This document shows, one piece after another, positions 22,765-25,380 of a DNA stretch of 64,000 nucleotides. The first letter of the stretch is position 1. Every line of letters begins with the position of its first letter. Below the pieces are notes generated by a model that saw nothing but the letters and a program-made list of their open reading frames with translations, searched no databases and had not been told where the DNA came from. The translations under genes and the position numbers were made by a program. Origin of the DNA: Escherichia coli (GTDB lineage Bacteria > Pseudomonadota > Gammaproteobacteria > Enterobacterales > Enterobacteriaceae); assembly GCF_045037415.1 (NCBI RefSeq), contig NZ_CP173438.1; one strand, given 5' to 3'.

Positions 22765-23643
22765 TTACGCTTGCAGCTCCAGCCCGGCCAGCCGCCGCCA
22801 GTAGCCGTTACAGTCGCTGTTTGCCGTCAACGGTAGTGGCGCAGCGCCATTTTCATTAGCGCGGAAGGCATCGAGCATTGCGAAAGTGTCAGTACCCTGC
22901 GGTGACAGGCGGACCACATCGACCAGCCCCTGCATGGATGCCAGCTCGTTACCGAGGTTGTAAACGTAGCCGCTCATGGTCTGAATGCCGTTGAGTACAA
23001 ACACTTGTTGGTTTTCCTGCGACAGTACGTTGCGCCCGTTCGGATACTTAATGCAGCAGGTTTCACACTCATCTTTCGGGCGGTCTTCCGAACGCGCGGT
23101 AAAGCAGCGTGCGGAGTAGGCCAGCGGTAGATGACCGTAGCTCAGGACTTCCACTTCAAACTGGTTGCGAATGCCCAACTCATCGCACTGATTAAGCAGA
23201 TTCACCAGCCAGTCGCGGGAAAGCTCCACCGGCATACACCAGCGCATCATGCCCTGTTTAAGCAATATTTTCAGCGTCACCGCGTTGTAGCAGTTCAGCG
23301 CGTGCCCGGCGACGAACGGCAGTTTGCGTTCAGCGCACATATTCACCACGCCGAGATCGCTGGCTTCAATCAGAAACTCACCGTTCTCAACATAGCGTTT
23401 CAGTTCGCCCAGTTCAGAGGATGCCTGCACCAGCGCCAGCGTGGAGAGCACAATCTGCTTACCACTTCCGGCGAGTGATTTTGCCATCTCCAGCCAGTCG
23501 CCAACTTTGGTTGCCCGGCGCTTGCTGCATACCGCTTCACCAAGATAAATCACGTCTGCGCTGCTGGCGGCGGCCTGCTGATAAAAGTCTTCCAGCGTCT
23601 CTTTTGGCCAGTACCATAGCACCGGCCCTAAGGAATATTTCAT
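22765..23643 (-). CDS. ubiV: U32-family protein UbiV (O2-independent ubiquinone biosynthesis; formerly YhbV)
   Basis: ORF 22765..23661; ATG at 23643 gives 292 aa MKYSLGPVLWYWPKETLEDFYQQ...; peptidase U32 fold with Cys cluster. Confidence 0.88.
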   Translation of the reverse strand: MKYSLGPVLWYWPKETLEDFYQQAAASSADVIYLGEAVCSKRRATKVGDWLEMAKSLAGSGKQIVLSTLALVQASSELGELKRYVENGEFLIEASDLGVVNMCAERKLPFVAGHALNCYNAVTLKILLKQGMMRWCMPVELSRDWLVNLLNQCDELGIRNQFEVEVLSYGHLPLAYSARCFTARSEDRPKDECETCCIKYPNGRNVLSQENQQVFVLNGIQTMSGYVYNLGNELASMQGLVDVVRLSPQGTDTFAMLDAFRANENGAAPLPLTANSDCNGYWRRLAGLELQA

Positions 23644-23651
23644 TGCTTTTC

Positions 23652-24647
23652 TCACTGCCATTTACGGTGATACGCGCCAAGGGTAGTTTGCGTGCCTTCG
23701 GACATCGACCCGAGCGTCTCCATCCACGCGCTTTGCGGTACGAAGTTTTGCGGATCGGCCTTACAACGGTCGATAGCCTGACGCCAGACTTTCGCCACCT
23801 GGCTGACATACGCCGGGCTACGCTGGCGGCCTTCAATTTTCACCGAAGCAATATTCGCCGCCATTAACTCCGGCAGCAGTTCCAGGGTATTGAGACTGGT
23901 TGGTTCTTCCAGCGCGTGATAGCGCTCGCCGTCCACCAGATAACGCCCTTTACACAGCGTCGGATAACCTGCGTTTTCGCCGTCCTGATAACGGTCGATC
24001 AGCACTTCGTTCAGGCGGGATTCCAGCCCTTGCGGCGTTTGCTGCCAGCGCACGAAACGGGCCGGAGAACATGCCCCCACGGTGTTGGGCGATTCACCCG
24101 TCAGATACGACGACAGATAGCAACGGCCTTCCGACATAATGCACAGGCTGCCGAAAGCAAACACTTCCAGTGGTACAGGTGTGACCCGTGCCAGCTGTTT
24201 CACCTGATGAATCGACAACACGCGCGGCAGTACCACGCGGGCAACGTCAAAATGGCGATGATAAAAGTTAATCGCCTCTTCATTGGTCGCCGAAGCCTGC
24301 ACCGATACGTGGCGCTCAATATGCGGATAACGTTCGGCGGCGTACTCCAGCATGGCGAGGTCGGCGAGGATCAGCGCGTCGGCACCCAGTTGCGCCGCCA
24401 TATCCACGGCGTGCTGCCAACGGGCGTAACCGTCCGGATGCGCAAAAGTGTTAATCGCGATGTGAAGTTTGCGGCGATGTTGATGGACAAAACTCACCGC
24501 TTCCTGCAATTTTTTCTCGGTAAAGTTAAGGCCGGCGAAGTGACGGGCATTGGTATCATCTTTTAGCCCGATATAAACAGCATCTGCGCCGTTTTCGATG
24601 GCCGCCTTAAGCGCCGGGAGATTTCCGGCAGGGCAGAGCAGCTCCAT
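23652..24647 (-). CDS. ubiU: U32-family protein UbiU (O2-independent ubiquinone biosynthesis; formerly YhbU)
   Basis: ORF 23652..24674; ATG at 24647 gives 331 aa MELLCPAGNLPALKAAIENGADAVYIGLKDD... Confidence 0.9.
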   Translation of the reverse strand: MELLCPAGNLPALKAAIENGADAVYIGLKDDTNARHFAGLNFTEKKLQEAVSFVHQHRRKLHIAINTFAHPDGYARWQHAVDMAAQLGADALILADLAMLEYAAERYPHIERHVSVQASATNEEAINFYHRHFDVARVVLPRVLSIHQVKQLARVTPVPLEVFAFGSLCIMSEGRCYLSSYLTGESPNTVGACSPARFVRWQQTPQGLESRLNEVLIDRYQDGENAGYPTLCKGRYLVDGERYHALEEPTSLNTLELLPELMAANIASVKIEGRQRSPAYVSQVAKVWRQAIDRCKADPQNFVPQSAWMETLGSMSEGTQTTLGAYHRKWQ

Positions 24648-24855
24648 AATTTTTCCTGAAGGTTGCGCTATCAAAACGCAAAAATGTTAACGAACTGGGA
24701 TTTTAGTTAACCTTGCTGCGACAATTTTTGATTTAAGGCAGTTAAAGTTGTATTGGTGGTAGCAGCAATTTCATATGGAATTGTTGATTTATACCGCTAT
24801 GTTATTTTTCTGATATGGCAAAATAGGATGATTGTTGAAACAGGGAGTAAAACTC
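24648..24855. promoter_or_regulatory. divergent ubiUV / ubiT-yhbS promoter region
   Basis: 208-bp AT-rich spacer between divergent genes; contains TTGAT half-sites (about 24729 and 24785) that could belong to FNR-type sites. Confidence 0.35.
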
Positions 24856-25380
24856 GTGTTGGATAAACTGCGTTCCCGTATTGTGCATTTGGGGCCATCT
24901 CTGTTGAGTGTACCGGTAAAACTGACGCCATTTGCGCTAAAACGCCAGGTTCTTGAGCAGGTCTTAAGCTGGCAATTCCGTCAGGCGCTGGATGATGGCG
25001 AGCTGGAGTTTCTTGAAGGTCGCTGGTTAAGTATTCATGTGCGTGATATTGACCTGCAATGGTTTACCTCGGTGGTGAATGGCAAACTGGTCGTTAGCCA
25101 GAACGCGCAAGCTGATGTGAGTTTTAGTGCCGACGCCAGCGATCTGCTGATGATTGCGGCGCGTAAACAAGATCCGGATACGCTCTTCTTCCAGCGTCGG
25201 CTGGTGATTGAAGGCGATACGGAGCTGGGGCTGTATGTGAAAAACCTGATGGACGCCATTGAACTGGAGCAAATGCCGAAAGCCTTACGCATGATGCTGC
25301 TGCAACTGGCGGATTTTGTTGAGGCGGGAATGAAAACCGCGCCTGAAACCAAACAGACATCGGTAGGTGAACCATGCTAA
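24856..25380 (+). CDS. ubiT: SCP2-domain lipid-binding protein UbiT (formerly YhbT)
   Basis: ORF 24832..25380; GTG at 24856 after GGGAG SD gives 174 aa (M)LDKLRSRIVHLGPSLLSVPVKLTPF... Confidence 0.85.
   Translation: MLDKLRSRIVHLGPSLLSVPVKLTPFALKRQVLEQVLSWQFRQALDDGELEFLEGRWLSIHVRDIDLQWFTSVVNGKLVVSQNAQADVSFSADASDLLMIAARKQDPDTLFFQRRLVIEGDTELGLYVKNLMDAIELEQMPKALRMMLLQLADFVEAGMKTAPETKQTSVGEPC

Follow-up and report, generated by a model that had tools for sequence, protein, structure and literature searches.

Results

Organization of the ubiUV/ubiT-yhbS locus

The window, a 64-kb stretch of the E. coli chromosome, contains a 2,616-bp unit (positions 22765–25380) in which ubiU and ubiV are transcribed in one direction and ubiT in the other from a shared intergenic region of 208 bp (24648–24855). 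We regard this unit as almost certainly the canonical E. coli ubiUV/ubiT-yhbS divergent locus for O2-independent ubiquinone (UQ) biosynthesis. Its genes and regulatory elements are listed in Table 1.

Table 1. Genes and regulatory elements of the locus (coordinates of the window)
Feature	Coordinates	Strand	Remarks
ubiV CDS	22765..23643	-	292 aa; U32-family [4Fe-4S] protein, partner of UbiU; RefSeq annotation of the identical strain
ubiU CDS	23652..24647	-	331 aa; U32-family [4Fe-4S] O2-independent hydroxylase subunit
ubiU ribosome-binding site, TCAGGA	24654..24659	-	6 nt from the ATG; block TCCTGA conserved, 79 species; putative Shine–Dalgarno role
Imperfect palindrome	24677..24720		Brackets ubiUVp −10 and +1; GTTAAC cores at 24686–24691 and 24706–24711
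ubiUVp −10, TAAAAT	24700..24705	-	ATTTTA in 76/79 species; putative hexamer
FNR site F1 (TTGATTTAAGGCAG)	24728..24741	+	Activates ubiUVp; identical to published F1
ubiTp1 TSS, approximate	24764..24765	+	Constitutive, FNR-independent promoter; ±1 nt
FNR site F2 (TTGATTTATACCGC)	24784..24797	+	Activates ubiTp2; identical to published F2
ubiTp2 extended −10 (TGGCAAAAT)	24816..24824	+	TGGCA[A/C/G]AAT in 78/79 species; putative hexamer
ubiT Shine–Dalgarno, GGGAG	24843..24847	+	8 nt upstream of the GTG; read from the sequence; mean column identity 0.97, 79 species
ubiT CDS	24856..25380	+	174 aa, GTG start; SCP2-domain accessory factor
yhbS (hqbA)	25374..25877	+	GNAT acetyltransferase; ATG overlaps the ubiT stop (ATGCTAA); annotation

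All three Ubi proteins exceed the cut-offs of their NCBIfam equivalog models: UbiU matches NF047963 with 559.9 bits (cut-off 440; residues 1–331 of 331 covered), UbiV matches NF047965 with 363.7 bits (cut-off 275), and UbiT matches NF047962 with 153.6 bits (cut-off 46.9). In Pfam, the peptidase U32 family PF01136 matches both UbiU (E = 1.4e-67) and UbiV, and the SCP2 family PF02036 matches UbiT (E = 1.1e-19). The eight cysteine ligands of the Fe-S clusters defined by Pelosi 2019, Cys169/176/193/232 in UbiU and Cys39/180/193/197 (CXnCX12CX3C) in UbiV, are all present in the window proteins. The first-pass annotation, which had seen two U32-family Fe-S proteins transcribed divergently from an SCP2-domain UbiT, is borne out in both respects, the orientation being that given by RefSeq; the RefSeq coordinates of ubiV, ubiU, and ubiT, taken from a 100%-identical strain, also coincide with those assigned in that annotation. 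The search of PDB sequences gave no detectable UbiU structure and, for UbiT, generic SCP2 entries only.

TrhP, the tRNA uridine-34 hydroxylase, is a prephenate-dependent U32 hydroxylase sharing with UbiU the U32 domain and a four-cysteine Fe-S motif, but its model gives only 164.5 bits with the window UbiU (cut-off 534), and TrhP acts on another substrate and has no UbiV or UbiT partner. UbiJ, which serves the aerobic UQ pathway as its SCP2 accessory factor and has been proposed to present hydrophobic UQ intermediates, has the same kind of lipid-binding domain as UbiT, whereas UbiT forms a separate phylogenetic subtree belonging to the O2-independent pathway, and it is the equivalog model for UbiT that the window protein matches.

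The ubiV gene lies directly downstream of ubiU with a gap of 8 nt after the ubiU stop codon. UbiU is conserved at 92–99% identity across 80 Enterobacteriaceae species, and in each of the 79 species with an examinable flank, ubiT and ubiU are divergently oriented. Two longer reading frames were considered and rejected. Extension of ubiV to the in-frame ATG at 23661 (298 aa) would place its start inside ubiU codons, and in 10 of 79 species, indels in the spacer shift this ATG out of frame; for an extended ubiU starting at TTG 24674 (340 aa), NF047963 aligns over residues 1–331 from ATG 24647, which agrees with the annotation and is ATG in 79/79 species.

Comparison with K-12 and other genomes

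The unit is 100% identical to the corresponding region of several E. coli chromosomes and was found in 5,424 of 5,426 complete E. coli genomes. Gene order, orientation, and lengths are those of ubiUV (b3158–b3159) and ubiT-yhbS (b3157–b3156) in K-12 MG1655. The segment 24618–24885, comprising the 208-bp intergenic region and 30 bp on either side, is 100% identical to K-12 MG1655, including F1, F2, the promoter elements, the Shine–Dalgarno sequence, and the GTG, and so is the UbiT protein. Across the unit, 50 nucleotides differ from K-12, all of them in coding sequence and mostly synonymous. The resulting amino-acid differences are R79H and I190V in UbiU (2 of 331 residues), E19D and T26A in UbiV, and R131H in YhbS; none of the residues concerned in UbiU and UbiV is a cysteine ligand, and many strains carry these same alleles.

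In each of the 5,424 complete E. coli genomes with the region, the intergenic sequence is at least 99% identical to 24648–24855. Within E. coli, the flanking genes vary but the control region stays invariant.

FNR sites in the intergenic region

Two perfect TTGAT half-sites are present in the intergenic region, at 24728 and 24784. The 14-mers containing them, F1 and F2, are 56 bp apart and each has three mismatches to TTGAT-N4-ATCAA (7 of the 10 specified bases); the consensus scan of 24648–24855 gave no perfect FNR palindrome TTGAT-N4-ATCAA. The half-sites without a perfect palindrome noticed at first pass are those of the published F1 and F2. Over the whole window, 307 sites with at most three mismatches were counted against 253 expected, which corresponds to a chance frequency of about 0.8 sites in 208 bp; because the consensus match itself is not above chance, the significance of F1 and F2 rests on conservation and published experiments.

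F1 has the form TTGATTT[G/A]AGGCAG in 76 of 79 Enterobacteriaceae species, and in F2 the blocks TTGATTT and CCGC are conserved across 79 species. The mean column identity over these species is 1.00 for both TTGAT halves and 0.99 for the right half of F1, with an intergenic mean of 0.75. Since conservation is as high in the degenerate right halves as in the consensus left halves, the weakness of F1 and F2 appears to be maintained by selection.

In K-12, the FNR sites and promoters of this control region were mapped experimentally; mutation of F1 abolished UbiV production, and mutation of F2 led to the loss of anaerobic UbiT induction, with basal expression remaining (Arias-Cartin 2023, PMC10470549). 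An FNR ChIP peak at yhbT/yhbU was called by all four peak callers, with a mid-range PatSer ln(p) of −8.72 (Myers 2013), and after coordinate conversion its centre falls on F1. In both fermenting and nitrate-respiring cells, the two operons had FNR peaks scored as activating (Federowicz 2014). The published fnr−/wild-type expression ratios are 0.07 for yhbU, 0.115 for yhbV, and 0.49 for yhbT, and the published anaerobic rise of UbiT is approximately 35-fold and Fnr-dependent. The first-pass annotation had allowed for a region having neither an FNR- or ArcA-type site nor anaerobic induction; FNR sites, ChIP peaks, and FNR-dependent induction are all documented. FNR binding and the dependence on each site, like the transcription start sites (TSSs) and enzyme function, are taken here from the literature on K-12, to whose sequence the control region of the window is identical.

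Promoters and start sites

The TSS positions were obtained from the distances stated in the text of Arias-Cartin 2023 (PMC10470549) and are accurate to ±1 nt. F1 precedes the ubiUVp TSS by 36 nt, and F2 is 19 nt downstream of ubiTp1 and 33 nt upstream of ubiTp2 (Arias-Cartin 2023, PMC10470549). These distances place the ubiUVp TSS at about 24691–24693 and the ubiTp2 TSS at about 24830–24831, with the centre of F1 at approximately −41.5 to −43.5 and that of F2 at −39.5 to −40.5 relative to the respective TSS. Conserved −10 elements (mean column identity in 79 species of 0.99 for ubiUVp and 0.97 for the extended −10 of ubiTp2) occur at the positions expected for a class II FNR-activated promoter, and we infer that ubiUVp and ubiTp2 both have class II FNR geometry near −41.5. 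The conserved GTATTG at 24750–24755 is a possible weak −10 element of ubiTp1.

A generic sigma-70 scan gave a single match (24674–24646, minus strand). It overlaps the start codon of ubiU, downstream of the published TSS of ubiUV, and was treated as a chance match. The terminator-like matches are all within coding sequence and at the number expected from shuffled sequence. Rfam at gathering thresholds gave no match in or near 22765–25380.

Other regulators of the divergent promoters

Besides FNR, two further modes of control were weighed. Co-regulation of both promoters by ArcA, by way of an ArcA box in the intergenic region, for which the first-pass annotation had proposed a scan, is very unlikely. 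TGTTA- and AGTTA-like elements do occur at 24685 and 24705, and a position weight matrix (PWM) trained on 115 published ArcA boxes (training scores 9.6–21.5, median 15.7) finds its best match at 24799–24816 on the plus strand, between F2 and the ubiTp2 −10 element. However, its 9.5 bits are just under the weakest training site and far under the median, the first repeat of the match is poorly conserved, and the GTTAAC cores are 20 bp apart, while typical ArcA repeats are spaced by 11 or 22 bp. Neither the ChIP nor the expression tables for ArcA in Park 2013 list yhbU, yhbT, or yhbV, and in Federowicz 2014 these genes appear in the Fnr tables but not in those for ArcA; with neither ChIP dataset showing a peak and UbiT induction unaffected by arcA deletion in published work, ArcA control of the locus is not supported and can be considered largely refuted.

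The GTTAAC palindrome over ubiUVp is an inverted repeat whose 18-nt arms are 78% complementary and stand 8 nt apart. A second regulator, most likely a repressor, might bind GTTAAC-N14-GTTAAC over the −10 and +1 of ubiUVp, a position typical for a repressor operator. The cores are conserved at 0.95 and 0.96 across 79 species (intergenic mean 0.75), compared with only 0.66 in the neighbouring spacer 24713–24722, and since the right arm is upstream of the TSS, a hairpin in the ubiUV mRNA is not possible; the 2023 mapping paper mentions neither a repressor nor a palindrome (Arias-Cartin 2023, PMC10470549). On the other hand, the −10 hexamer and the start region fall within the block and would be conserved anyway for core-promoter reasons, GTTAAC is self-complementary, so that two copies automatically score as an inverted repeat, and the outer positions of the arms are poorly conserved. 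Neither ChIP nor genetic evidence of a further factor was found in the literature, and the loss of UbiV production upon mutation of F1 alone means that FNR is clearly the main control. A second regulator at this position is, in our view, unlikely. To our knowledge, none of the consensus sequences of TrpR, TyrR, NarL, IscR, Fur, IHF, and Cra fits the palindrome convincingly. If such a regulator did exist, it could act alongside FNR to gate anaerobic ubiquinone synthesis, responding for example to iron/Fe-S status, aromatic/prephenate supply, or nitrate.

Translation start of ubiT

The start of ubiT at GTG 24856 after a GGGAG Shine–Dalgarno sequence, as read at first pass, is also that of the RefSeq annotation; the GTG is kept in 78 of 78 species (column identity 1.00). 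The open frame reaches upstream to TTG 24832, and a start at this TTG or at TTG 24835, or else at TTG 24859, which is codon 2 in the window strain, could be considered instead. Such a start is extremely improbable: given the ubiTp2 TSS at about 24830–24831, a ribosome-binding site would not fit before TTG 24832, and the segment 24826–24840 is poorly conserved (0.54), TTG 24832 itself scoring 0.44. No upstream alternative is found in more than 14 of 78 species; in-frame stops occur at varying distances, and none of these starts is conserved. Codon 2 varies synonymously between TTG, CTG, and TTA, and its being CTG or TTA in many species argues against TTG 24859, whereas both the GTG and the GGAG 8 nt before it are conserved; the K-12 annotation, like that of RefSeq, places the start at the GTG. 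Selection may in addition have retained the GTG start as a translational throttle setting the stoichiometry of UbiT, a proposal that we judge jointly with the second regulator at the GTTAAC palindrome and consider rather improbable. In the literature on the locus, we found no discussion of the palindrome over ubiUVp or of the non-AUG ubiT start in all species examined.

Discussion

In this work, we established the gene identities, their coordinates, the sequence identity to K-12, and the conservation of the sites. Overall, the analysis confirms the annotation and has little importance beyond this, as the E. coli locus, its enzymology, the FNR sites, both ubiT promoters, and the comparative architecture across Pseudomonadota are already published. 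The window locus is a typical member of architecture '3' of the ubiTUV loci of Pseudomonadota, in which an FNR-type site separates ubiT from the divergently oriented ubiUV, and a predicted FNR site is found in 96% of the loci with divergent architecture across this phylum (ISME J 2024, PMC11707229). The suggestion in the first-pass annotation to map the regulatory architecture in this strain becomes moot, the architecture having been mapped in K-12 (PMC10470549) on a region that is identical here together with its 30-bp flanks.

According to the proposed model, a decrease in O2 would allow [4Fe-4S]-FNR to bind F1 and F2. FNR at F1, centred near −41.5, would activate the leftward ubiUV promoter, FNR at F2 would likewise activate the rightward ubiTp2, and the upstream constitutive ubiTp1 would maintain a basal aerobic level of UbiT, which would be translated from the conserved GTG after GGGAG. 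UbiU and UbiV would form a heterodimer of U32-family proteins with one [4Fe-4S] cluster each, carrying out the three ring hydroxylations without O2 and with prephenate as the oxygen donor, and UbiT would serve as an SCP2 lipid-binding accessory factor. [quoted passage not shown]

The ubiT gene and yhbS form a single transcription unit according to published RT-PCR, and yhbS is dispensable for UQ synthesis; a role of its product HqbA in Hfq binding has been published. The overlap between the two genes is kept in the form ATGYTRA in 78 of 78 species.

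Gene Organization of the ubiVUT Unit

The first-pass annotation correctly read a known locus, every layer of which is already known: the pathway and its proteins (Pelosi 2019), prephenate as the published O donor, and the regulation and physiology (Arias-Cartin 2023, PMC10470549); the comparative picture of the locus is likewise already published. Gene coordinates were taken from the RefSeq annotation of a 100%-identical strain mapped onto the window (see the table), with which those proposed from the sequence agree exactly.

Several complete E. coli chromosomes, that of strain SK1144 among them, match the unit (22765–25380, 2,616 bp) at 100% identity. 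Of 5,426 complete E. coli genomes, 5,424 carry it once; among the 5,425 matches to the unit, one is a plasmid record, not a chromosome. The neighbourhood (deaD, mtr, yhbW, ubiV, ubiU, ubiT, yhbS, yhbQ, yhbP, yhbO) follows the order of K-12 b3153–b3162.

The three proteins score 559.9 (UbiU), 363.7 (UbiV) and 153.6 (UbiT) against NCBIfam equivalog cut-offs of 440, 275 and 46.9, with Pfam matches to Peptidase_U32 in UbiU and UbiV and to SCP2 in UbiT. The cysteines established by Pelosi et al. 2019 as ligands of two [4Fe-4S] clusters are all present (UbiU C169, C176, C193, C232; UbiV C39, C180, C193, C197). UbiT is the same as the K-12 protein, whereas UbiU carries R79H and I190V, and UbiV carries E19D and T26A.

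The ubiT stop overlaps the start of yhbS (hqbA) at 25374–25380 (ATGCTAA). In 78 of 78 species the ubiT orthologue is 174 aa long and its end overlaps the yhbS start as ATGYTRA; the retention of this overlap suggests translational coupling. HqbA is described in published work as an Hfq-binding acetyltransferase dispensable for UQ synthesis.

Features of the ubi locus and mean column identity to the window in the 79-species alignment
Feature	Position	Strand	Sequence or length	Mean column identity
ubiV	22765–23643	−	292 aa
ubiU	23652–24647	−	331 aa
ubiT	24856–25380	+	174 aa
yhbS	25374–25877	+
F1	24728–24741		TTGATTTAAGGCAG; 3 mismatches to TTGAT-N4-ATCAA
F1 left half				1.00
F1 N4 spacer				0.84
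F1 right half			GGCAG	0.99
F2	24784–24797		TTGATTTATACCGC; 3 mismatches to TTGAT-N4-ATCAA
F2 left half				1.00
F2 right half, whole				0.81
ubiUVp hexamer (putative)	24700–24705		ATTTTA (TAAAAT on ubiUV strand)	0.99
ubiTp2 extended −10 (putative)	24816–24824		TGGCAAAAT	0.97
ubiT SD	24843–24847		GGGAG	0.97

FNR and ArcA in the Control Region

Two 14-mers in the 208-bp control region between ubiU and ubiT (24648–24855) each have an intact TTGAT left half, and the region has no perfect palindrome, in line with the half-sites reported from the sequence. Consensus matching alone is not significant (307 such sites in the window against 253 expected, or ~0.8 per 208 bp); both 14-mers are letter-for-letter the FNR sites F1 and F2 of Arias-Cartin et al. 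2023 (PMC10470549). Both form part of a 13-nt direct repeat, AATT[T/G]TTGATTTA, with a start-to-start spacing of 56 bp.

That study places the TSS of the leftward promoter ubiUVp 36 nt downstream of F1. Of the two rightward promoters, ubiTp1 is located 19 nt upstream of F2 and ubiTp2 33 nt downstream of it. On these distances, the centre of F1 would fall between about −41.5 and −43.5 and that of F2 between about −39.5 and −40.5, consistent with a class II FNR arrangement. Mutation of F1 abolished anaerobic UbiV production without affecting ubiT; mutation of F2 abolished anaerobic UbiT induction without affecting ubiV, and the basal level that remained was attributed to ubiTp1 (PMC10470549). 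Since 24618–24885 is 100% identical to K-12 MG1655, this map transfers directly to the present strain.

Genome-wide data report FNR binding at the same locus. In Myers et al. 2013, an FNR ChIP peak at yhbT/yhbU was called by 4 of 4 peak callers and had also appeared in an earlier ChIP-chip study; its PatSer ln(p) of −8.72, mid-range between nirB (~−16.5) and frdA (~−5), answers the FNR PWM scan that had been proposed. Their fnr−/WT expression ratios are 0.07 for yhbU, 0.115 for yhbV, 0.49 for yhbT and 0.47 for yhbS. In Federowicz et al. 2014, Fnr-associated regions are listed for fermentative and for nitrate conditions, with "Activation" assigned to both [yhbU, yhbV] and [yhbS, yhbT]. Flag-UbiT rises ~35-fold anaerobically in an Fnr-dependent manner (2023 PNAS paper). 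O2 limitation likewise induces yhbUV in Dickeya and Pectobacterium. With the offset from U00096.2 to U00096.3 taken to be +1,977 bp, the peak of Myers et al. 2013 would be centred at ~24732, inside F1.

ArcA control, for which a PWM scan had also been proposed, is not supported. With a PWM built from 115 of 128 ArcA boxes (Table S3 of Park et al. 2013), the best match in the control region scored 9.5 bits (24799–24816), below the training range of 9.6–21.5 (median 15.7), and its first repeat is not conserved in the 79-species alignment; yhbU, yhbT and yhbV are missing from the ArcA binding and expression tables of Park et al. 2013 and from the ArcA tables of Federowicz 2014; and UbiT induction is reported to be unaffected by arcA deletion.

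Conservation of the Control Region

The intergenic region was aligned with its counterparts from 78 other species, and the mean column identity to the window is 0.75. As judged from this footprint, the conserved blocks appear to be exactly the functional elements. F1 reads TTGATTT[G/A]AGGCAG in 76 of 79 species, CCGC is conserved in the right half of F2, and the ubiU RBS block is likewise conserved. From the published distances, TAAAAT would be the ubiUVp hexamer, 7–9 nt upstream of the TSS, and TGGCAAAAT an extended −10 located 7 nt upstream of the ubiTp2 TSS.

Across all 5,424 E. coli genomes, identity within the 208-bp region is at least 99%, whereas the whole unit reaches only 95–99% in most. 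The 50 differences from K-12 across the unit are all in coding sequence and leave the 208 bp untouched, an outcome whose calculated chance under an even spread is ~0.016. The non-coding control region is more constrained than synonymous sites. One natural isolate, E. coli EEC_W5, carries an IS1 insertion (locus L083, 2501–3485) equivalent to window position ~24773, between ubiTp1 and F2, which splits F1/ubiUVp from F2/ubiTp2.

An imperfect palindrome (24677–24694/24703–24720; 18-nt arms, 78% complementary) brackets the ubiUVp −10 and TSS, and its two GTTAAC cores, 20 bp apart, show a conservation of 0.95–0.96 against 0.66 for the adjacent spacer. It is not discussed in Arias-Cartin 2023 (PMC10470549), and the literature examined assigns no regulator to it. 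We consider it unlikely that this palindrome is the operator of a second regulator; the pattern could merely reflect core-promoter constraint together with the self-complementarity of GTTAAC.

Start Codon of ubiT

The GTG start at 24856 and the GGGAG SD 8 nt 5' of it were found as claimed in the first-pass annotation. The locus was collected from 80 Enterobacteriaceae species, 79 with a usable upstream flank; in every one of these 79, ubiT and ubiU are divergent. In 78 of 78 full-length alignments, GTG stands at residue 1 (mean identity 1.00), and codon 2 varies synonymously (TTG, CTG, TTA) and is therefore not the start.

Upstream in-frame starts were rejected: none of them occurs in more than 14 of 78 species, and in-frame stops lie at variable distances. 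For the TTG at 24832, the surrounding 15 bp are weakly conserved (0.54 mean identity), and the published proximal TSS (~24830–24831) leaves no leader. That all 78 species examined retain GTG points to selection for a weak start. The already-known status of the locus is altered neither by this conserved GTG nor by the ubiUVp palindrome.

Flanking Features

In the ubiV–yhbW spacer (22685–22764), inverted repeats are nested, an 11-nt pair (22707–22717/22723–22733) lying inside a perfect 14-nt pair (22688–22701/22745–22758); the RNA fold has a z-score of −4.4, with the 3' arm extending over the yhbW RBS. In ~49 of 75 Enterobacteriaceae species, the arm (A)GCTCACTTTGT(TA) is retained directly ahead of the yhbW ATG. 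In published data, yhbW is regulated oppositely to ubiUV, being up 6.8-fold in an fnr mutant and 5.7-fold in an arcA mutant.

Elsewhere in the window, Rfam matches at the gathering threshold comprise two tRNAs, the rimP leader, naRNA4, the S15 leader, SraG and RNase P RNA (3976–4059, 7843–7916, 8008–8108, 12807–12877, 14390–14504, 14734–14905 on the minus strand, and 52459–52835), all expected in this E. coli region.
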